A model generated the notes under the pieces. That model made no database searches, was not told the DNA's origin, and saw only the letters and a program-made list of their open reading frames with translations. A stretch of DNA of 64,000 nucleotides from Rubripirellula sp. (GTDB lineage Bacteria; Planctomycetota; Planctomycetia; Pirellulales; Pirellulaceae): NCBI GenBank assembly GCA_965216875.1, contig OZ244207.1:7136001-7200000 (forward strand), in the 5' to 3' direction. Positions 35,079 to 47,322 of the stretch are shown here, one piece after another; within the stretch, counting starts at the first letter, position 1, and each line of letters opens with the position of its first letter. Made by a program: the position numbers and the translations under genes.

Positions 35079-35225
35079 GTTGCCCCGCTGAGAGATCGGT
35101 GGTTCCCCTCTGAGGGATCGACGGGTTCGGGAACAGGCACTTTTGGACAGCTTCCAAGGTCTGTTTTCTGGGCAGCGTTCGTCGATGAATCCCCCAGGTT
35201 TTTGACTCAGTAACGAGTGAAGTGC

Positions 35226-35912
35226 ATGTCGAGGAATCGACTCGACTCAATCCGTGCCGCGGCGCCCGCCGTCCTGCCGAGTTTGCTGCTATGCGACTTC
35301 GGCGACCTGCGAAGCGAAATCGCTCGCCTGGAAGAAGCGGGGACGCACGTGTTGCATCTTGATGTGATGGACGGCCACTTTGTTCCGAACATGACCTATG
35401 GCATGCCCATCGTCGAAGGTCTGCGCCGCCATACCGAGATGCCCCTCGATGTGCATCTGATGATCAGCGACCCGATCACGTATGCCAAACCGATGGTCGA
35501 CGCCGGTGCAGATCTGCTGACCTTTCATGCTGAAGCGGTCGAAGATGTTGCGGCAACGGCACAGCAAATCCGGGATTTGGATGTCGGGGTTGGGATTGCT
35601 TTGAACCCAGGAACGCCGCTTGAAGCGATTGCATCCTGTGTTGAGATGGTCGACATGGTGCTGGTGATGAGTGTCGAGGCTGGTTTTGGCGGCCAGTCGT
35701 TCAATCCAGAGGTGCTTGAGAAGTTGCGGACGTTGCGTGAGCAGCGCCCTGACCTGTTGCTGCAGATCGATGGCGGCATCGATGCCAGCACGATCGGGCC
35801 AGCGCGTGAAGCGGGCTGTGACCTGTTCGTCGTTGGTTCGGCGATCTTCAAGAAAGAAGACTACAAGGTTGCGATCGACGATTTGAACTCAGCGATGGGG
35901 GCGTCGGCATGA
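35226..35912 (+). CDS. rpe: Ribulose-phosphate 3-epimerase
   Basis: HLDVMDGHFVPNMTYG, DVHLM, LVMSVEAGFGGQ, IDGG, VVGSAIF. Confidence 0.97.
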   Translation: MSRNRLDSIRAAAPAVLPSLLLCDFGDLRSEIARLEEAGTHVLHLDVMDGHFVPNMTYGMPIVEGLRRHTEMPLDVHLMISDPITYAKPMVDAGADLLTFHAEAVEDVAATAQQIRDLDVGVGIALNPGTPLEAIASCVEMVDMVLVMSVEAGFGGQSFNPEVLEKLRTLREQRPDLLLQIDGGIDASTIGPAREAGCDLFVVGSAIFKKEDYKVAIDDLNSAMGASA

Positions 35913-36493
35913 TCTTGAAGACCAAGACCGCCTCCCGCGTTTTGTTGGTTCGTCCCGGCGCGACCGAGTTTGATGACCAAGGGCGAATCAAGGGTTCGCT
36001 TGACATGCCGATGAGCGACCGTGGTCGCCAGCAGGTCGATTCGCTCGCCGAAGAGTTGTCGGACGTGCGGGTCAAAACGATCTACATTGGACCTTGTGAA
36101 TCAGCCCGCGAGACGGCAGACCGCCTGGCCAAGGGGCGTGACGTCCGCGTGAAAGTGGTCGAGGCGTTTCGCAACATCGACCACGGTTTGTGGCATGGCA
36201 AGCTGATCGACGAATTGCGCCGCAACCATCCACGCCTTTACCGACAAGGGCAAGAAAGCCCCGATGAGGTTTGCCCGCCAGGTGGTGAATCGATCCTGGA
36301 AGTCAAAGCCCGAGTGCTCAAAGCGGTTCGCAAGATTGCTCGAAAGAGCGGCGAGGAGCTTGTGGCGATCATTGTCCCTGATCCGATGGCCGCCGTCGTC
36401 GAGAGTCTGATATCGGGTGACGAGATCCCAGAGCTTTGGGATGTGGAAACGGACAACGGCCGCTGGCAGATCGTCGAATCGGTCATCCGCTAG
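35909..36493 (+). CDS. Histidine phosphatase (phosphoglycerate mutase) fold protein lacking catalytic histidines
   Basis: LLVRPGAT in place of RHG; DMPMSDRGRQQ; ARETA; IDHGLWHG; PGGES; ATGA overlap with rpe. Confidence 0.85.
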   Translation: MILKTKTASRVLLVRPGATEFDDQGRIKGSLDMPMSDRGRQQVDSLAEELSDVRVKTIYIGPCESARETADRLAKGRDVRVKVVEAFRNIDHGLWHGKLIDELRRNHPRLYRQGQESPDEVCPPGGESILEVKARVLKAVRKIARKSGEELVAIIVPDPMAAVVESLISGDEIPELWDVETDNGRWQIVESVIR

Positions 36494-36555: not shown

Positions 36556-37039
36556 AGTTCTCGTTTTTAGCCTGACCTTGGGCGCCGCCCGACGCCGAGA
36601 GGCCCGCAGCTTCCGGATACGGCTCGATACAAACGGGCGATGCAGGAGCCAAGAGTCGACTGCGCCTATGGAAAAAACGCGTGCGACCGGTTCCTGAGAA
36701 CCGATCGCCCCGCGACTGCTCGCCAAACGGCAAAAGTCGATTTCATCGCGACAATCGTGAATATCGGCGCCTTTACCCCAATCGGGGAGGTCGGGTTGCC
36801 GCGTTACGGATGCGGCCCCATTGCAGGGCGAATAGAATATCGGATTGAGTACATCAGTCCTGAAGCCCCGTTTTCTCTACAGATGCACGAGATTTTCCGC
36901 TCGACGGCGTCGGTTGAAGTGAGCTAAGAATCAGGCTGGGTCCAGCTTGAGTGCCGCCCGTTGCGACCGCAGAGCGATTGTGATCAGTCTTGCCGATCGT
37001 TCGGCGTCGACGCTTATACCACCGAGGATTCCCTCAATC

Positions 37040-38680
37040 ATGTCTCGACTATTTGTTTGTTTGTTCTGTTCTCTGTTCACTCTGGCGACAACTAGTGCTG
37101 AACCGAACATGCCTTCGCAAGTGACTTTGATTAATGAGTCGATCGAGCAAGGTTGGCGCGACTTCGAGATCCGTCCTGCGAAAGAGGTCGGCGACGCGGC
37201 TTGGTGCCGACGCACCTACTTGGATGTGATCGGTCGCATTCCAAGCCTCGAAGAATTGCAGGCGTTTGTCAGTGAACGCGGCGTGGACAAAAAGGCCAAG
37301 CTGGTCGACATGCTTTTGCACGACGACAAGTACACCGAGGAATACGCCAACCATTGGGCGACCGTTTGGACCAACATCTTGATCGGTCAAAGCGGAGGGA
37401 ACGATCGTCGCTCGATGACCAGCCGCAGTGGCTTGCAAAAGTACTTGCGAGACTCATTTGCGCGGAACAAGCCGTACAACAAGATGGTCTATGAGTTGGT
37501 GACCGCCGAAGGGGCGACCAAGCCAGGTGCCGAGAATTTCAACGGCGCTGTCAACTTCCTGGTCGACAAGGTGAACGAGGAAAAGGGAGTGCTGGCAACA
37601 AGCAGCACGTCGCGAATCTTCCTCGGTCAACAAGTGCAGTGCACTCAGTGTCACAACCACCCGTTCAATCAATGGAAGCAACAGAAGTTTTGGGAGTTCA
37701 ATTCGTTCTTCCGGCAAACGCGCGCCCTTCGCCGGTTTGTGGATGGAACACGAGACATCGATCACGCCGAGTTGGTTTCCGAAGACTTTGCTGGTGAAGG
37801 TGGTGACCCGAACGAAGCAATCGTGTTTTACGAATTGCGAAATGGTTTGGTCCGCACTGCCCTGCCCGTCTTCACCGACGGCACGGAGGTCGGCTCAAGT
37901 GGTTACGTCGAAGACATCAATCGCCGTCAAGAGCTCGGCCGCTTGATGATGGAAAGCGAGTACCTTGACCAAATGATCGTCAACCGAATGTGGTCATTGT
38001 TCTTGGGGCATGGCTTCACCAAGCCGATCGATGACCTTGGACCGCACAATCCTCAATCGCACAAACAGTTGCTCGAAGACCTTTCCAAAGAGTTTCGCAA
38101 GAGCAGCTATGACCTCAAGCAACTGATCACTTGGATCACCCTCAGTCGACCTTATTCGTTGGATGCCACTTTGGGTGCAAGCAACGAGATCGATGACCCA
38201 TCGATGGGCGAGATGCCAAAGTTCTCGCGATTCTATTTGCGTCAGATGACTGCCGAGCAGCTTTACCAATCGATGGTCACCGCGACCGACGCAAAGGGCT
38301 CGGGAAGCTATGAAGAACAAGAGGCCCAGCGTCGTCGATGGTTGTCCCAGTTTGTAACGGCCTTTGGAACGGACGAAGGCGACGAGTCGACCACGTTCAA
38401 CGGATCAATCCCACAGGCGTTGATGATGTTCAACGGTGAGCTGACCAAGAAAGCAACAAGCGACAAGGATGGCGGTTTCATCGACCGCATCGCCAGCAGC
38501 GGTGCTCGTGATGGTGGCGTCGCGAATTTGTTTATGACCGGGTTGGCACGTCGGCCGACCAAGAAAGAACTCTCCGTCGCCCGCTCGCTGATGCAGGCTC
38601 GTGATGGCGATCAGAAAGAAATGCTCAAGGACCTTTGGTGGGCGATTTTGAACAGTAACGAGTTCATCATGCAGCACTAG
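37040..38680 (+). CDS. DUF1549/DUF1553 protein with one CxxCH
   Basis: Signal peptide; WCRRTYLDVIGRIPS; NKPYNKMV; CTQCHNHPF; VNRMW; IPQALMMFNG; LWWAILNSNEF. Confidence 0.92.
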   Translation: MSRLFVCLFCSLFTLATTSAEPNMPSQVTLINESIEQGWRDFEIRPAKEVGDAAWCRRTYLDVIGRIPSLEELQAFVSERGVDKKAKLVDMLLHDDKYTEEYANHWATVWTNILIGQSGGNDRRSMTSRSGLQKYLRDSFARNKPYNKMVYELVTAEGATKPGAENFNGAVNFLVDKVNEEKGVLATSSTSRIFLGQQVQCTQCHNHPFNQWKQQKFWEFNSFFRQTRALRRFVDGTRDIDHAELVSEDFAGEGGDPNEAIVFYELRNGLVRTALPVFTDGTEVGSSGYVEDINRRQELGRLMMESEYLDQMIVNRMWSLFLGHGFTKPIDDLGPHNPQSHKQLLEDLSKEFRKSSYDLKQLITWITLSRPYSLDATLGASNEIDDPSMGEMPKFSRFYLRQMTAEQLYQSMVTATDAKGSGSYEEQEAQRRRWLSQFVTAFGTDEGDESTTFNGSIPQALMMFNGELTKKATSDKDGGFIDRIASSGARDGGVANLFMTGLARRPTKKELSVARSLMQARDGDQKEMLKDLWWAILNSNEFIMQH

Positions 38681-38748
38681 GCGTTCTTAAACTGACAACC
38701 GAAAATAGACCGGATCACTTATCCAACAAATAAAACAAGGCTTCTCAG

Positions 38749-40020
38749 ATGACTCACTGGCAAACTCCGAAAGGCATGACCCGGCGGCACTTCATGAACC
38801 ACCTTGCTGGTTCAACGGCTGCCGTCAGTGCTGCGATGACCCTTGGGAATTCGATCACGGCACACGCGGACGAGATGCGAAAAAATCGCAAGTCAGCCAT
38901 CCTGCTTTGGATGGGCGGCGGGCCTGCCACGATCGATATCTGGGACCTCAAACCAGGTGCTCCGACCGGTGGACCGTTCCGGCCGATTTCGACCTCGGGC
39001 GACATGCAGATTTGCGAGCACATGCCGATGGTGGCTCAGCAGATGCACAACCTGTCGATCGTGCGAAGCATGTCGACGCGAGAAGCCGACCACGCTCGCG
39101 GTCGCTACTACATGCACACCGGCTATGTTCCTAACCCGAACATCGAACACCCAAGCTACGGCTCGGTCATCGCTCATGAAGTCATGGACCAACGTCCCGG
39201 GCTTGAGATCCCGCCGTTTGTTTCGGTGGGCGGTGGCAGTGCCGGACCTGGTTTCCTTGGCATGGCTTGGGCACCATTTTCGGTAACCAGCAACGGTCGT
39301 ATTCGCAACCTCGAGATGAACCTCGAGAACAGTCGCCTGCTGCAACGCATGTACGCACTGAACACGATTGAGACTGGTTTTGCAAATCGTACGCGCGACC
39401 TTCCTGCGGCAGAGCACGCGAAGGTGCTCAAGAAGACGTTCGACCTGATGACCAGCGAACAGATGGAAGCGTTCCGTGTCGAGAAAGAACCTGAGGAAGT
39501 GAAGGAACGCTACGGCACGGACAACTTCGGCCAAGGTTGCTTGCTCGCGCGACGCTTGGTCGAAGCGGGTGTCCCGTTCGTCGAGGTCGATCTTGGCGGT
39601 TGGGACAACCACAACGGCATTCACCCGCTGTTGAAAGACAACAAGTTGCCACAGCTTGACCGTGCGATGAGCGCGTTGGTCGAGGACTTGGAGCAGCGCG
39701 AATTGCTGCAGGATACTGTGGTGATTTGGATGGGTGAATTTGGACGTACACCGCGCATCAATGCAAACGCTGGTCGCGACCACTTTGCTCGCGCCTGGTC
39801 CTGTGTTGTGGGCGGGGGTGACCTCAAGGGTGGCGTTGCGGTTGGTGAAACCAGCAGCGATGGCCAAGCAGTCGAGACAGAACCCTTCAGCAGTGAAGAT
39901 CTGATGACAACCGTATGCAAGGGATTGGGTATTCCGACCGAAAAGACATTCACCAGTAAGAATGGCCGACCAATGAAGATTGCAGGCGGCGGAAAAATCA
40001 TTAGCGAATTGGTGGCTTGA
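38749..40020 (+). CDS. DUF1501 domain protein, Tat signal
   Basis: MTRRHFM; ILLWMGGGP; CLLARRLVEAGVPFVEV; GWDNH; GEFGRTP; GRDH. Confidence 0.93.
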   Translation: MTHWQTPKGMTRRHFMNHLAGSTAAVSAAMTLGNSITAHADEMRKNRKSAILLWMGGGPATIDIWDLKPGAPTGGPFRPISTSGDMQICEHMPMVAQQMHNLSIVRSMSTREADHARGRYYMHTGYVPNPNIEHPSYGSVIAHEVMDQRPGLEIPPFVSVGGGSAGPGFLGMAWAPFSVTSNGRIRNLEMNLENSRLLQRMYALNTIETGFANRTRDLPAAEHAKVLKKTFDLMTSEQMEAFRVEKEPEEVKERYGTDNFGQGCLLARRLVEAGVPFVEVDLGGWDNHNGIHPLLKDNKLPQLDRAMSALVEDLEQRELLQDTVVIWMGEFGRTPRINANAGRDHFARAWSCVVGGGDLKGGVAVGETSSDGQAVETEPFSSEDLMTTVCKGLGIPTEKTFTSKNGRPMKIAGGGKIISELVA

Positions 40021-40613
40021 TCCACGTGGCTTCGCCGCAGGGATCAACGAGTCAATCTATCGAACCAACGGACGATTCGGAACTTTCGCCTGATCAGGAG
40101 AAGGCCGAATTGGGGCCGGCGGAGTTGATCGCGCGTCACCAAAACGGGGTTTGGAGATACCTGCGGATGCTTGGCTGCGATGCGGCAACCGCTGACGATT
40201 TGACGCAGGAGACGTTTTTACGAGTTCTGAGTCGAGAAAGTTTCATTCAACATAATGACGCTGCCACTTCGGGTTACTTGCGTCGCACGGCCTACAACCT
40301 GTTGGTCTCGCGGCACCGCAAGTTGGCGCGAGTGCAGACCGTCGCGGAGCCGGCCGTGTTGGATGTGATTTGGGAGCGCTGGGCCGGAAAGGATTTGTCA
40401 GGAGACCTTGCGATCGATGCGTTGAAGTCCTGTCTTCAAACGTTGACCGATCGCGCACAACAAGCATTACGAATGAGATTTGCCGAGAACGCCAGCCGAG
40501 TTGAAATCGGCGAATCACTCGGCATTTCCGATCACGGGGCTCGCAACTTAATGCAGCGTGCAAAGCAGCAACTGCGAATGTGCGTTGAAGAAAAATTGCG
40601 TCAAGCAAAATGA
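40017..40613 (+). CDS. ECF RNA polymerase sigma factor
   Basis: Region 2 VWRYLRMLG..ADDLTQETFL; region 4 LTDRAQQALRMRF...EIGESLGIS...RAKQQLRMC. Start TTG 40017 or GTG 40026. Confidence 0.92.
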   Translation: MIHVASPQGSTSQSIEPTDDSELSPDQEKAELGPAELIARHQNGVWRYLRMLGCDAATADDLTQETFLRVLSRESFIQHNDAATSGYLRRTAYNLLVSRHRKLARVQTVAEPAVLDVIWERWAGKDLSGDLAIDALKSCLQTLTDRAQQALRMRFAENASRVEIGESLGISDHGARNLMQRAKQQLRMCVEEKLRQAK

Positions 40614-42559
40614 CAGACGACCAGCAAGACGACAAAATCGAGGAATTCGCACCAGGTGTAGAGCAAGCGCTCGACGTCCTGCTGAGCGAAGCGCACGGTG
40701 CTACTTCACCGCCCGATTTGTCAGACCGAATTCTCGATAAATTGCACGCGCTTGACGGTGCGCCCTACGGTGAATCGTTGTCCGACATCATCCTTGATGG
40801 CGGCGACCTTCATGGTGGGGCCGCGCTGTCAAAGAAAAAACGCCGTATCGCGATTGCAAGTGCCATCCTTGTTGCCATCGCCGCAGCCCTGTTGGTGATG
40901 TTCACTGGTGACGGGGATGTCGATCTTGATGGTGATCCTTCCACACAGGTTGCGGGTGCTGGCGATTCCGAATCGGATTCCGACGATACCTATGCCGATT
41001 CAACACCGCCAACCGATGGCGATGTGACCAGCGAGTCGGCGGAAGAGCAGCAAGATCGGTCACTCGCTCCAGCTGGACGCGGCATTCCGCTGGTGCTCAA
41101 CCATGGCGAAGATACCGAGTCCGAAACACAGCCGGGCAGTCTTGATTGGCTGATTCCCACCGTCCCCAAGTCGGAAGTCGCGATCACTTTGGTTTCGACC
41201 GATGTCGATTCGGACATGACCAACTACTGGCAGGCGATCGGCATCGATCCATCAGGTGATGCTCCCGCCGAAGAGGTTGCGGCCCGCTTGGCCGCAGTGG
41301 TGGGCATCGAATTGGATGCTGCCGCTGTCAAAGATTCGACGTTGATTCAAGAGGAAATCGCGCGTCCGGTGATTAGCAAAGTCATCGCACGACGATGGCT
41401 GACCGAGTTGACCGGCGGTGGAATCAACCGAGTTGAAAAGACAACGCGACAAGCTTTGATCAACGAGTTGAGCCAATGTTTCCGTTCGAAGCAAAGCTTT
41501 GACCGTACGCTCGCGAGCTGGATGAGTGGCAAGAGCGAACATTCGTCGGCCTTTTACACCGCCTTCGCAGGTGATGGGCGTCATCAAAGTGTTCGGCGAC
41601 TTGCATCGTTGACGGCGAACGTCGACCTTCGCTGCGTGCAGTGCCACGACTCGTACATCGAGGGCAATGTGGCGCAAAGCGACTACTGGTCGTTTGCCGC
41701 ATTCCTGAACAAGGGGCTGAGTCGTCAGCGCGATGACTGGAGTGTGGATGCCGAAAACCACACCGCGGCGCCGCTGTTCTATTCATTGCCAGATGGCCGA
41801 CAAAAAATCGCCGAGTCCGAGATCCCGCAGCGATGGGTTTCTGGACCGAAGCCCGAGAAGATTGTCGATTGGTCCGCATCGGTGGTCGGCTCCAAGCGAC
41901 TTGCGCGCGGCGTTGTGAATTCGCTTTGGAAACTGGTGCATGGGCAATCGCTTCGAGGGCACGTTTTCGACACGTCGAGTGCACCCCATGACAAGGCGCT
42001 CGATCGTCTTGAACAACGCTTGGCGAATGACTTTGTTGGATCGAACTTTGATGTTGGGCGACTGTTGGCGTTGATCGTCGCATCGCCCTCCGCGCGACGT
42101 AGCGTTCCCGAAGCGTTGCGGCCTGAGAACACGATTGCGTCCAGCGAGGAAGTTCATCAAGCGATGCAATCGGTCAACGCGTTTGCCGCTTCAATGCCAC
42201 CGCATCGGTCGTTGCCCATCCAACGTCGAATTGAGATTGCTCAATCACGCATTGGTGCAACGCTTGATGGCACCCAGCCCGTGCTGGCTCAGGGGACCGG
42301 TGAGTTGTCGAGTGAACCGCCTCGGGTCAATCCAAACCGTTCGAAAGCCGGAAGCGACTTCCCAAGTCGTGCTCACGGACTGCCGGTTCAATGGTTGTCT
42401 CGAATCGAAGATCCCCAGAATCAAGCCGCTCATCTCGGCTACCTGGCCGGAATGCACGAGTTTTCACCTGAGCTCCAGGCAGCGGCTAAGCAGCTTGAGG
42501 AGGCTGGAGAGGATCGCTCGCTGGCACTTCAGCGAATCTGGTGGCTGGTTCGCCCCTAG
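40610..42559 (+). CDS. Putative single-TM anti-sigma factor with degenerate DUF1549/DUF1553 extracytoplasmic region (CxxCH)
   Basis: ATGA overlap with the sigma gene; short N-domain LDVLLSE..PPDLSDRIL; KKKRR then TM; acidic linker; RCVQCHD..YWSFAAFL; VVNSLWKLVHG; NFDVGRLLALIVAS. Confidence 0.75.
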   Translation: MTDDQQDDKIEEFAPGVEQALDVLLSEAHGATSPPDLSDRILDKLHALDGAPYGESLSDIILDGGDLHGGAALSKKKRRIAIASAILVAIAAALLVMFTGDGDVDLDGDPSTQVAGAGDSESDSDDTYADSTPPTDGDVTSESAEEQQDRSLAPAGRGIPLVLNHGEDTESETQPGSLDWLIPTVPKSEVAITLVSTDVDSDMTNYWQAIGIDPSGDAPAEEVAARLAAVVGIELDAAAVKDSTLIQEEIARPVISKVIARRWLTELTGGGINRVEKTTRQALINELSQCFRSKQSFDRTLASWMSGKSEHSSAFYTAFAGDGRHQSVRRLASLTANVDLRCVQCHDSYIEGNVAQSDYWSFAAFLNKGLSRQRDDWSVDAENHTAAPLFYSLPDGRQKIAESEIPQRWVSGPKPEKIVDWSASVVGSKRLARGVVNSLWKLVHGQSLRGHVFDTSSAPHDKALDRLEQRLANDFVGSNFDVGRLLALIVASPSARRSVPEALRPENTIASSEEVHQAMQSVNAFAASMPPHRSLPIQRRIEIAQSRIGATLDGTQPVLAQGTGELSSEPPRVNPNRSKAGSDFPSRAHGLPVQWLSRIEDPQNQAAHLGYLAGMHEFSPELQAAAKQLEEAGEDRSLALQRIWWLVRP

Positions 42560-42722: not shown

Positions 42723-42812
42723 CGAGGAATCTCATCCCTTGCGGCCGCTTGATGGAGTATGATGGGGGTTGCTTATTCTCCTCCTCCTCCTCCGGTCGTT
42801 TGCAGGAAGCTG

Positions 42813-43682
42813 ATGGGCATTCGGTTTGCATGCCATGTCTGCGAAAGACGTCTGAACATCAAAAAAGAGCTTGCCGGCAAACGGGGGATTTGCCCGGTCT
42901 GTGCGGCTCGCATTCGGATCCCGCTTGCGGACACCGACAAGTCGACTCCGGTTGATGAGGCCAAGCCGGTCGCTGCTGCAGCCGCGCCTGCGGCGGTTTC
43001 AACTGCCACTGCCTCACCGATCGCAGCGGCACCTCAACCCGTTGCCAGCCGAGCCTCGGTCGAGGTTGCATCACAGCCATCGACCCCAATGCCCGTCGAG
43101 CAGAAATACCGGACGCCGGCATCTGCCGTTTCTCAGCCGACCGCTGAAACGTTAAATGATGACTTGCTGGTCGAGCATTCACCGGTGCCCGAAAAGGGCT
43201 CCGAGACGTCGTCGCTTGACTTGTTGACCGAAGAGAACGAGGCGACTTGGTATGTCCGTCCGCCGAGCGGTGGCCAATACGGACCGGCCACGACGGAGGT
43301 GCTAAGGCATTGGATTCAAGAAGGACGAGTTGCGTCTAACGCGTTACTTTGGCGTGAGGGTTGGCCCCAATGGCGCGATGCGGCCGATGCACTGCCCGAG
43401 TTTGCCGGACGGCTTCCGAAGAGTCGCGGCGGGACGCCTCGCTTTTCGACATCCAATCCACCCGACGTTCCGGGAGCCTCGAGTTCCGACCAAACAGGAT
43501 CGGTTGGAACAGGATCCGTTGTCCAGGGCGAGCTGTCAGCCGGTGCGAATGTGGCTCACGCCGAAGAGCGGATGGAAGAGGCTTCGAGACGATCGAAGCC
43601 GAACCAGATGGTGACGATCATCGTGCTTGGCGTGATTGCCTTGACGCTGATACTCGTGTTGGCATTTGTGGCGGCACGATAG
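42813..43682 (+). CDS. Zinc-ribbon + GYF_2 (DUF4339) domain protein with C-terminal TM anchor
   Basis: CHVC...CPVC; WYVRPPSGGQYGP...WIQEGRV...LWREGWPQW; hydrophobic C-terminus. Confidence 0.88.
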   Translation: MGIRFACHVCERRLNIKKELAGKRGICPVCAARIRIPLADTDKSTPVDEAKPVAAAAAPAAVSTATASPIAAAPQPVASRASVEVASQPSTPMPVEQKYRTPASAVSQPTAETLNDDLLVEHSPVPEKGSETSSLDLLTEENEATWYVRPPSGGQYGPATTEVLRHWIQEGRVASNALLWREGWPQWRDAADALPEFAGRLPKSRGGTPRFSTSNPPDVPGASSSDQTGSVGTGSVVQGELSAGANVAHAEERMEEASRRSKPNQMVTIIVLGVIALTLILVLAFVAAR

Positions 43683-44922: not shown

Positions 44923-45253
44923 GCGAAAGTCCCGTGGGTGAGCAGAGAACAGAAAGAAATCAGCTTCCACTGTTATCGGACGCACCGATCGGCATCCTCA
45001 GTTCACCGCCACAGCCGGGATAAGTGGCTTAATTGCTATGCATTAACACGAAAAGTCGAGTGCTTCCGGGGACGCAATTTGGCTGCGAAATTTGCCTAAC
45101 CCCACTCCCTTCGCAGGTTGCTGGTTGATCCATTAGAGTATCAGCGTTGGTCTTGTCGTCGCGATGTGACGGCGAGGCAGTGAGACTTTGCCAAATCAGC
45201 GGTCAGCTCGAAAGCAATACGAGCGGACCGATTCATCAACCGGAGTAGCTGTG

Positions 45254-45811
45254 ATGCGTGTTCAACTTGCACTGATCGGAATGCTGATGCTCGCGATTTC
45301 CGTTTCGCCAACACGAGCCGACGACGAAGCGGCCAAGCCCGAGTCGCTCAACGTGTTCGGTGCGACGATGGAAGTCCCCACCGATTTCGCGCGAGCCGAA
45401 AAGAAAAGTCGAATTATCGAGCATGAATTCGAAGCAAAGGTTGGCGAAGGCGAAGAGGCAAAGACAGCTCGAGTCACCTTCATGGCGGCCGGCGGCGATG
45501 TTGCTGCAAACATCTCACGCTGGAAAGGCCAATTTGCCGGTGGCAAAGCGGAAGACCAAAAAACGGAAGAGATGAAACTTGGCGAGTGGCAGGTGCACAT
45601 CGTTGACGTTTCTGGCTCGTACGCCGAACGTATGGGCGGCGGTCCGTTTGCGGGTGGCAAAGTGGTGCAACGAAAAGACTATGCGATGGCCGGTGCCATC
45701 CTCGTGCACCCAACCGGACGCAAGTACTTTGTGAAAATGATCGGACCGGCAGAGGTTGTCAAAGCCAACCGGAAGGCGTTCGTCGCAATGATCAAGACGA
45801 TCAATAACTAG
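45254..45811 (+). CDS. Secreted hypothetical protein
   Basis: GGAG upstream; signal peptide ending TRA-DD; GGDVAANISRWKGQF, YFVKMIGP. Confidence 0.8.
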   Translation: MRVQLALIGMLMLAISVSPTRADDEAAKPESLNVFGATMEVPTDFARAEKKSRIIEHEFEAKVGEGEEAKTARVTFMAAGGDVAANISRWKGQFAGGKAEDQKTEEMKLGEWQVHIVDVSGSYAERMGGGPFAGGKVVQRKDYAMAGAILVHPTGRKYFVKMIGPAEVVKANRKAFVAMIKTINN

Positions 45812-45825
45812 GCAACACTGACCGA

Positions 45826-47322
45826 ATGAACATTCAAAGCTTGTTGGAGCATCACGGGATCTCGCGCAACCCGTTTGCAGAAGAGGATGCGCAGACGGAC
45901 CCCGTGTTCAAAGAGCATTGCATCAGCAGTGCCTATCACCCGGTTTGGGACAAAGTCTATGGAGACGCCAGCGAACCGTCGACGTCGATCATCTTTGGCC
46001 CCAAAGGTTCTGGAAAGACTGCGATTCGTTTGCAGGTGGACCAGCATCTGGCAAGCTACAACACGGAGAATCCTGACAAGCGAATCTTCGTGATTCGCTA
46101 TGACGACTTCAATCCATTTCTCGATCACTTTTGTGAACGGTTGAGTCGGCGGAATTCCAAACGGCCTGAAAAAGCGCTCGACGCTTGGCGGCTTTGGGAC
46201 CACATGGATGCGATCCTCTGTTTGGGCGTTACCGATTTGGTGGACCGTGTGCTCAAACCTGATACGGGGCGCGAAGCGGCCGTGCGCAGTGAAGCGATTT
46301 CGAAACTTGATCGGACCGATGCTCGGGACCTGTTGCTGCTGGCGGCGTGTTACGACCAATCGACTTCCGATTCGTTCACTGGACGCTGGTCATCGCTTCG
46401 CAAGGCGCTGCGGTTTGGCAATCTGCAGTCGTACGTCAAGCTTGTTGTGGCAATCGTTTGGGGATTGGCGTCCATTGGTTTTGTCACCTGGTTGCTTAGC
46501 CGGAGTGCTGGCGGCGAAGAAGGTGTGAACTTCAAGCTGTTGTGGCTGATTCCGATCTTGGTGCTCATTGGAGCGTTCCCCTATTTGCTTGACCTGATCA
46601 AGTGTCAGGCAGCGGCATTGGGAATCCGCCGACACATGCGCGTTGGAAAACGCGAAGTCGGATCGATGCGTCAGGTGCTGATGAAGATCCCGGGCAAGGA
46701 ATTGGCCAGTCAGCCGCTGCCGCGCTATGATCGCACGGACGATCGCTACGAACTGTTGAACAAGTTCCAGTCGATCCTTCAGCGTCTCGGATTCGCCGGT
46801 GTGATTGTCCTGATGGATCGCGTCGATGAGCCACACATGACCGGCGGCAAACCGGAATTGATGCGTCGCTTCGTTTGGCCGATGCTTGATAACAAATTGC
46901 TCAAGCACCCGGGGGTCGGGTTCAAGTTGATGCTGCCCCAAGAGCTGCATCGTGACATTGAACGCGAGACGCGAGAATTTCACGAACGGGCGCGGCTGGA
47001 CAAGCAGAACGTGATTCCGGCATTCCAGTGGACGGGTGAGTCGCTCTATGACCTCGCCCGGGCACGAATGATGGCCTGTGCGATCGACGGCCGTTCGCCT
47101 GAGCCCAAGGATTTGTTTGCCGACGAGATCAGCTACGAGCGGATGATTGCGGCGTTTCAGTCATTGCGCGTGCCTCGCCACCTGTTCCGGTTTCTCTATC
47201 GGGTGCTGGTCGAGCATTGCAATCGCTACACCGACGCCCAGCCGGTTTACCAGATCAAGGGTGAGACGTTCGAGGCGATGCTGGCCGTCTACAGCCGCGA
47301 AATGGACCCCAATTTGGGCTAA
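45826..47322 (+). CDS. P-loop NTPase with two TM helices inserted between Walker A and Walker B
   Basis: IIFGPKGSGKT; TM segments LVVAIVWGLASIGFVTWLL and LLWLIPILVLIGAFPYLL; VIVLMDRVDE. Confidence 0.8.
   Translation: MNIQSLLEHHGISRNPFAEEDAQTDPVFKEHCISSAYHPVWDKVYGDASEPSTSIIFGPKGSGKTAIRLQVDQHLASYNTENPDKRIFVIRYDDFNPFLDHFCERLSRRNSKRPEKALDAWRLWDHMDAILCLGVTDLVDRVLKPDTGREAAVRSEAISKLDRTDARDLLLLAACYDQSTSDSFTGRWSSLRKALRFGNLQSYVKLVVAIVWGLASIGFVTWLLSRSAGGEEGVNFKLLWLIPILVLIGAFPYLLDLIKCQAAALGIRRHMRVGKREVGSMRQVLMKIPGKELASQPLPRYDRTDDRYELLNKFQSILQRLGFAGVIVLMDRVDEPHMTGGKPELMRRFVWPMLDNKLLKHPGVGFKLMLPQELHRDIERETREFHERARLDKQNVIPAFQWTGESLYDLARARMMACAIDGRSPEPKDLFADEISYERMIAAFQSLRVPRHLFRFLYRVLVEHCNRYTDAQPVYQIKGETFEAMLAVYSREMDPNLG

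Follow-up and report, generated by a model that had tools for sequence, protein, structure and literature searches.

A predicted anti-sigma factor of Rubripirellula whose outer domain descends from the lineage of a PSCyt2-PSD1 gene in its own operon

What does a membrane protein sense when it is encoded next to a sigma factor and its outer part resembles the product of the gene that heads its own operon? The question is raised by four genes in a 64,000-nt stretch of Rubripirellula sp. DNA (Planctomycetota, Pirellulaceae; contig OZ244207.1, positions 7,136,001 to 7,200,000, forward strand), hereafter the window. The genes are co-directional and lie on the + strand between window positions 37040 and 42559, where an earlier note on this sequence had placed them. 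Trees indicate, with caveats given below, that the outer domain of gene 4 descends from the lineage of gene 1, and we put at roughly one in two the probability that this domain acts as a haem-c sentinel controlling the neighbouring extracytoplasmic function (ECF) sigma factor. The four genes are as follows.

37040-38680, + strand: gene 1, predicted secreted PSCyt2-PSD1 (DUF1549/DUF1553) protein, 546 aa (Pfam, conservation, trees)
38749-40020, + strand: gene 2, DUF1501 protein with a twin-arginine-like signal (Pfam, structure model)
40017-40613, + strand: gene 3, ECF sigma factor, 198 aa, no extension (Pfam regions 2 and 4)
40610-42559, + strand: gene 4, putative anti-sigma factor, 649 aa (homologue alignment, model)

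The earlier note had claimed four co-directional genes, TTGA and ATGA overlaps, and an anti-sigma topology for gene 4; the open reading frames (ORFs), the overlaps in the DNA (genes 2/3 and 3/4, respectively), and the topology were all confirmed. The arrangement, whose absence from relatives would have told against the earlier reading, was complete in 40 of 45 GTDB loci, mostly from Pirellulaceae; four of the other five are cut by contig ends, and one is without genes 1 and 2. Gene 3 consists of sigma2 and sigma4 only (Pfam sigma70 r2, 42.4 bits; r4, 36.8 bits) within approximately 200 aa, the make-up of an ECF sigma factor, and scored 62.9 bits with TIGR02937, above the cut-off of 42.9. It falls outside the TIGR02989 sigma subfamily (79.4 bits, below the cut-off of 124.55). 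Its TTG start is unproven, and one relative begins at the position of Val4. Gene 4 has the layout of a membrane anti-sigma factor, being next to the sigma gene and combining a short cytoplasmic N-terminus, one transmembrane (TM) segment, and an outer domain.

40652-40756, + strand: conserved two-helix peptide LDxxLxE...PPDL..IL, putative sigma-binding domain, gene 4 residues 15-49 (model helices, alignment)
40847-40903, + strand: predicted TM helix, residues ~80-98, preceded by KKKRR (hydrophobic segment in homologues)
41177-42556, + strand: outer domain, diverged PSCyt2-PSD1 (CxxCH and His608 in homologues, hhalign, tree)

The KKKRR stretch occupies residues 75-79, and a single hydrophobic segment starts at residue 80. 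Among 162 full-length homologues (560-800 aa, taken from 191 proteins), the segment was present in 158, and in 138 of these the charge before it was more positive than the charge after it. The AlphaFold model of gene 4 (predicted local distance difference test, pLDDT, 77) has two N-terminal helices (residues 15-28 and 38-49), a TM helix, a disordered acidic/Pro linker (residues 100-175, low pLDDT), and a confident, mainly helical outer domain. The E, P, and D of the N-terminal peptide were invariant in 48 aligned peptides, including those attached to vWA-type sensors. Indeed, sister sigmas are followed by the same peptide with other sensors, namely vWA plus YfbK_C (PF12034, which we take to be DUF3520) in seven of the eight scanned and EF-hands in one. 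It is the sigma, then, that the peptide goes with, and sensors can be exchanged. Gene 4 probably encodes an anti-sigma factor with a single membrane pass, and genes 3 and 4 very probably form an autoregulated sigma/anti-sigma pair.

The relationship of the outer domain to gene 1, which had been proposed from five by-eye pairings, was evaluated next to the Pfam scores of gene 1 itself (PSCyt2/DUF1549, 157.6 bits; PSD1/DUF1553, 85.3 bits; a CxxCHxH motif is located at 37640-37660). The profile comparison suggested for residues ~190-649 of gene 4 bore the homology out: BLASTP against gene 1 gave an E of 3e-6 (20% over 314 columns), hhalign of the gene-4 family profile gave a probability of 99.1 and an E of 5.3e-19 over 301 columns, and the top ESM Atlas clusters were all PSCyt2+PSD1 (score 0.94). 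Pfam matches to PSCyt2 (22.5 bits) and PSD1 (19.1 bits) were both below the gathering cut-offs of 29.8 and 28.5. Four of the pairings fall inside the BLAST alignment, and the fifth, LQRIWW with LKDLWW, is backed by a MAFFT alignment in which W645 corresponds to W534. Judged by profile homology and the retained CxxCH, gene 4 is a degenerate PSCyt2-PSD1 member that misses the Pfam cut-offs and motifs of the family. Searches with the whole 649-aa model named no cytochrome, which does not speak against one, and gave no clear match in the PDB (Foldseek, none at E<=0.001; VIA fold search, best Z 4.9), and PDB sequence searches (queries A2, A4, and A5) returned nothing significant.

Besides gene 4, the genome contains 57 PSCyt2/PSD1 matches, and the link to gene 1 in particular rests on intermediates in other genomes. 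In other Pirellulales, the same sigma type is followed by an anti-sigma with a nearly intact outer domain. When seven related anti-sigmas were compared by BLAST with the window's genome, all five near-intact ones (three of this sigma type and two of a family termed f3) matched gene 1 first, at 409-534 bits, with the next paralogue at 242 bits or less; both diverged ones had a first match other than gene 1. Against a gene-1 profile, the anti-sigmas make up a graded series, with 757 bits at the top and 17 at the bottom. A tree that included the intermediates (IQ-TREE, LG+C20, 39 of 101 aligned rows) placed gene 4 inside a Pirellulaceae anti-sigma clade (support 99/97), itself within a group of gene 1 and anti-sigmas (100/100). 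This nesting argues that the gene 4 sensor is an old duplicate of gene 1's lineage. Thus, of the earlier claim that gene 4 carries a degenerate copy of the protein at the head of the operon, descent from the lineage of gene 1 stands, and a recent copying of the neighbour does not. The history read from the trees, again with caveats, is that a gene-1 copy became the outer domain of a pair whose sisters carry vWA-YfbK, and later diverged rapidly in part of the Pirellulaceae.

The same outer domain was found behind three distinct sigma/N-terminal modules. Type A is the sigma plus N-terminal peptide of the window. Type B (family f3) was found at 27 loci, 25 of them with gene 1 and DUF1501 upstream; its sigma scores at most 32 bits against the window sigma, its N-terminal motif differs from that of type A, and the two type B sigmas tested exceed the TIGR02989 cut-off (162.6 and 161.4). 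Type C was seen in one genome (L231, where the gene runs to the contig end) and has a zf-HC2 domain at 26.2 bits, above the cut-off of 22.2. In trees, the anti-sigma types grouped with the free gene 1 of their own lineage (support 100/99, 97/95, and 100/98), with a number of type A copies scattered among free gene 1 sequences. Approximately unbiased (AU) tests, for which the groups were named after a first tree had been seen, rejected a single clade for types A and B (p 1e-17, 35 rows) and for all three types (p 2.6e-4, quick LG tree). Since each module's sensor is sister to its own lineage's gene 1, these sequences suggest that the sensor was recruited from gene 1 repeatedly, on different modules; gene conversion plus module swapping may offer an alternative account. 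One genome, G854, contains two copies of the type B gene 1 and sigma/anti-sigma module (L239/L247 and L244/L249).

The modules also bear on whether gene 4 is a regulator at all. It might instead be a membrane-anchored gene-1 paralogue co-transcribed with an unrelated sigma, as could be expected from near-intact forms that resemble functional gene-1 copies and from an N-terminal peptide without a match to known anti-sigma domains. However, the peptide accompanies this sigma type regardless of which outer domain is attached, other lineages join the same outer domain to the zf-HC2 anti-sigma domain of type C or to a different N-terminal motif, and the sigma and gene 4 remain paired where genes 1 and 2 sit elsewhere. 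We therefore regard a non-regulatory gene 4 as very improbable.

A regulator of this kind would be expected to have a promoter of its own, and the earlier note had pointed to the region 36560-37040. A conserved motif that moves with the sigma gene was indeed found there, close to a candidate basal promoter.

36846-36872, + strand: predicted ECF promoter, -35 TGAGTAC at 36846-36852, 16-nt spacer, -10 CGTT at 36869-36872 (38/38 orthologous upstream regions)
36833-36838, + strand: sigma70-like -10 hexamer (TAGAAT) immediately 5' of the ECF site, a candidate basal promoter

The motif GRGTAC-N16/17-CGTT precedes gene 1 in all 38 loci with enough sequence (spacer of 16 nt in 35 and 17 nt in three); shuffled controls gave a mean of 0.44 and a maximum of 3. 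In 36 of the 38, a hexamer TA[GCT]A[AC]T occurs no more than 60 nt upstream of the ECF motif, a count made with no shuffle control. With a position weight matrix (PWM) trained on the gene-1 upstream sites (threshold score >=12), a site was detected before the sigma gene in 35 of 48 type A loci, in 29 of 31 where the sigma heads the operon, and in none of 20 sister-sigma controls. The site also stands before gene 1 copies located far from the sigma (L206, L207, L212, L219, and G596). For gene 1 of family f3, the PWM gave low scores (one site, 14.5), as it did for most other families. A predicted bipartite promoter thus precedes the sigma's own operon, and the product of gene 3 would be the factor that recognises it.

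Ten of the 43 genome-wide motif matches are intergenic, and four of the nine other intergenic sites were checked in relatives. One of them belongs to a secreted cytochrome, and 11 of its 20 orthologues carry the site (0.12 expected).

G000:5047517-5049412 (L253; G000 is the window's genome): di-haem PSCyt1 cytochrome, secreted, 631 aa, two CxxCH

The sigma, gene 1, and this same di-haem cytochrome are all preceded by the site in two complete genomes whose anti-sigmas are intact. An operon of a lipoprotein-like gene and ccsBA (ResB + Cytochrom_C_asm) has the site in three of 19 loci family-wide (0.14 expected) and, in six of 12 further subclade genomes, upstream on the same strand (L387, L388, L393, L394, L395, and L399; one genome without a match and two duplicates are excluded from the 12, and adjacency to ccsBA was not rechecked there). 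Since kin are not independent, such counts show conservation and not repeated origin. The lipoprotein-like gene stands before a 1206-aa ResB/CcsA fusion in all 19 loci checked (G000:5507173-5512232, L383); it had no NCBIfam match and is possibly a cytochrome c maturation accessory. Other intergenic matches lie near beta-lactamase-like, OPT transporter, and KAS III-like genes and an ORF at G000:7091441. Separately, the motif was seen at a secreted cytochrome c'-like protein in genome G389 (L327), and there was no promoter match before the orthologue in the window's genome (G000:3135493-3136494).

What the outer domain has kept, and what it has lost, was assessed in the same 162 homologues. All contain exactly one CxxCH, though identity to the query drops to 21%, and in all of them W207 and His608 are invariant; an Asp follows CxxCH in 153. 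In gene 4 the motif is CVQCH (residues 342-346, 41633-41647), and His608 lies at 42431-42433. In gene 1, 100 positions are near-invariant (>=90% conserved in 46 orthologues); 88% of them are retained in intact anti-sigmas, 32% in diverged ones, and 23 of the 100 in gene 4. The second His of CxxCHxH is present in 46/46 gene-1 orthologues, 7/7 paralogues, and 1/13 diverged anti-sigmas and is absent from gene 4, which is also without the C-terminal NSxEF...H tail and the RRxxLD motif. His608, on the other hand, occurs in 13/13 diverged anti-sigmas, 10/23 intact ones, and 4/25 gene 1 sequences. Haem c is normally attached at an exact CxxCH of a periplasmic domain; gene 4 has the motif and the predicted topology of an exported domain, and CcsBA is encoded in the genome.

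The CxxCH(xH/D) could also be a metal or thiol-disulfide site, in which case the input to the anti-sigma would be metal ions or oxidative stress in the envelope. The second His in gene 1 and its paralogues and the Asp of the gene-4 family agree with this, as does the induction by heat, cold, and salt of a possibly orthologous Rhodopirellula baltica ECF linked to a DUF1549/1553 gene, described in the available text of PMC2754498. We nevertheless consider it improbable, given an exact CxxCH in the predicted periplasmic domain, a CcsBA encoded in the genome, and cytochrome c and ccsBA genes in the predicted regulon.

A further possibility is that the outer domain docks the DUF1501 enzyme, exported by the twin-arginine translocation (Tat) route, or the substrate of the complex, as gene 1 presumably does, with occupancy controlling release of the sigma. 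The product of gene 2 (DUF1501, 355.6 bits; N-terminal RRHF) is predicted to have an alkaline-phosphatase/sulfatase fold, judging from its model (pLDDT 77.7; best Foldseek E 1.5e-6; VIA Z 17.8, root-mean-square deviation 3.2, 247 aligned). In this DUF1501 protein, an invariant His115 lies within H-x-R-G-x-Y-x-M-H-T-G, with the same spacing as in the sulfatase nucleophile motif CxPxRxxxxTG, and the GWDxH and RDH motifs are likewise invariant. Partner sensing would fit such an enzyme-like fold, the 88% of gene-1 positions retained by near-intact anti-sigmas, and the 15 loci where an intact anti-sigma is directly followed by a close DUF1501 paralogue (L109, L139, L158, L159, L163-166, L171, L174, L175, L179, and L181-183). 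It fits gene 4 less well, with its 23 positions, lost tail, and lost RRxxLD, with no DUF1501 gene after it, and with a promoter common to haem-c genes. The earlier suggestion that the anti-sigma binds DUF1501 is therefore weakened for gene 4, where the second His is gone as well, and keeps its appeal for the near-intact relatives. Such sensing may have been the ancestral mode; for gene 4 we find it rather unlikely.

We favour haem c as the signal since the haem motif and a new His were kept while most family residues were lost, and since the predicted regulon holds cytochrome c and maturation genes. Given an autoregulated pair, the input is more likely than not haem-c status. In the mechanism that we envisage, the cytoplasmic two-helix peptide would keep the sigma at the membrane, and CcsBA would attach haem c at C342/C345/H346 of the periplasmic domain, as it does in the controlled proteins, where His608 could provide the sixth ligand. 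On the pattern of other anti-sigmas, failed attachment or an altered redox or ligand state might destabilise the domain, which would be proteolysed and free the sigma. The sigma would then fire GRGTAC-N16/17-CGYT promoters (the motif itself is observed) of the gene 1-DUF1501 operon and the di-haem cytochrome c, as well as of the lipoprotein-ccsBA operon in this subclade. Periplasmic haem-c proteins would in this way come under feedback control. The complete scenario is more demanding: three recruitments of one specific DUF1549/DUF1553 gene in planctomycetes, each to another sigma/anti-sigma module, and decay of gene 4 (second His lost, His608 newly invariant) to a covalent-haem sentinel that bears its own c-type haem, reports cytochrome c maturation, and controls ccsBA. 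We propose it tentatively, with the odds against it.

Several findings count against descent from gene 1, a haem-c input, or the pairing. The gene-4 family profile ranks gene 1 only fourth among the genome's paralogues (53.9 bits vs 69.7, 62.1, and 59.0), so that other paralogues are closer when scored directly. The branch that carries gene 4 is very long and is flagged by IQ-TREE, and a FastTree analysis without the intermediates put the diverged clade outside the gene-1 clade; because the IQ-TREE analysis with intermediates nests gene 4, we read that placement as long-branch attraction. The near-intact anti-sigma L170 (2284-4557), otherwise well conserved, has its CxxCH region replaced. The N-terminal peptide gave no match to RseA_N, RskA_N, or zf-HC2 (48 peptides, E<=1) or to known anti-sigma families in Pfam or PDB sequences, and it has two helices vs the four of a class I anti-sigma N-terminal domain (ASDI), so that it does not fit that class. 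In most Pirellulales outside the Pirellulaceae, and in several Pirellulaceae, gene 1 has a weak promoter site before it or none. The 43 matches in the 8.26-Mb genome are about what chance would give (2-8 per shuffled Mb), and only conserved sites therefore count. The ccsBA site was not seen in the other 16 of 19 loci or in six of the 12 extra genomes; a prenyltransferase-fold (SQHop-fold) protein is a weak candidate (3/24), and an NHL-repeat protein was rejected as a regulon member (1/14).

Across the loci, gene 4 diverges fastest: identity in best segments was 33-54% for gene 4, mostly 68-83% for gene 1, and 77-90% for DUF1501. The gene-1 subfamily was present in 239 of 301 genomes of the searched class. 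The notion that the anti-sigma is the sole gene-1 copy in sigma-first genomes was rejected, as most also carry a free gene 1. Layouts vary: Novipirellula herctigrandis (L043) has the sigma and gene 4 with no genes 1-2 within 7 kb upstream, L139 reads gene 1-DUF1501-sigma-antisigma-second DUF1501, and L155 reads sigma-antisigma-gene 1-DUF1501. In L179 and L180 the anti-sigma extends over two overlapping ORFs (a frameshift or assembly error), and L037, a record titled Nitrosopumilus (an archaeon), holds an entire planctomycete locus and is likely mis-binned. In most relatives, rpe and a histidine phosphatase gene lie upstream of the operon; downstream, some of them encode a GYF_2 protein and a P-loop protein that is well conserved (66-80%) and of no clear family. 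The flanking genes in the window are at 35217-36493, 42759-43682, and 45188-47322.

Pairs of DUF1549/DUF1553 and DUF1501 genes occur in dozens of copies per planctomycete genome, and we know of no function for them. For one DUF1549/DUF1553 subfamily, the locus supplies a sigma factor and co-regulated genes, both predicted, together with a sharp promoter motif, so that its inducing signal, and hence its function, can be tested by a simple reporter; this would offer a first handle on a large protein family without known function. If the same target gene was indeed recruited repeatedly to serve as its own sensor, regulatory design would have converged in a clear-cut way.

Our literature searches found no paper describing a PSCyt2-PSD1 anti-sigma and none on a haem-c-bearing anti-sigma that monitors cytochrome c maturation. 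A link between an ECF sigma and DUF1549/1553 is already in print: the available text of PMC2754498, citing Studholme 2004, has R. baltica RB10049, an ECF sigma induced under heat, cold, and salt stress, as the proposed regulator of the nearby DUF1549/DUF1553 gene RB10051. Both loci place an ECF sigma near a PSD1/PSC2 gene, but RB10051 is presented there as a target, with no mention of an anti-sigma role or of degenerate copying. The pair formed by genes 1 and 2 is an instance of the DUF1501 + PSCyt2/PSD1 module of the Planctomycetes-Verrucomicrobia-Chlamydiae (PVC) bacteria (PMC3542564, PMC5615132), in whose main texts no sigma or anti-sigma fusion appears and the word "sigma" occurs 0 times. 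In ECF226, a group with Planctomycetes among its members as described in the available text of PMC7826278, a one-TM anti-sigma carries DUF3520 and a von Willebrand domain, and no conserved promoter is reported; the incomplete text of its supplement gave 0 matches for DUF1501, DUF1549, DUF1553, PSCyt2, and PSD1. By that description, the likeness lies in the sister sigmas (97-137 bits), which share the N-terminal peptide and carry vWA + YfbK_C, while the window has a PSCyt2-PSD1 sensor and a conserved promoter. As in RpoE/RseA, SigK/RskA, and SigW/RsiW (available text of PMC7406223), the gene after the sigma overlaps it and encodes a short cytoplasmic peptide, a single TM helix, and an outer domain, and an autoregulatory ECF-type promoter is predicted; unlike those, gene 4 has a peptide of two predicted helices with no family match and an outer domain that is a CxxCH-bearing copy of a regulated gene. 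BlaR1/MecR1 (available text of PMC9834060) are also membrane receptors whose outer domain, related to class D beta-lactamases, is kin to the kind of enzyme they induce, but BlaR1 acts through its own protease on a repressor rather than a sigma, and its sensor was not copied from the very lineage of the gene under its control. Set beside these systems, the operon of the window is a real, conserved variant of the ECF/anti-sigma design.

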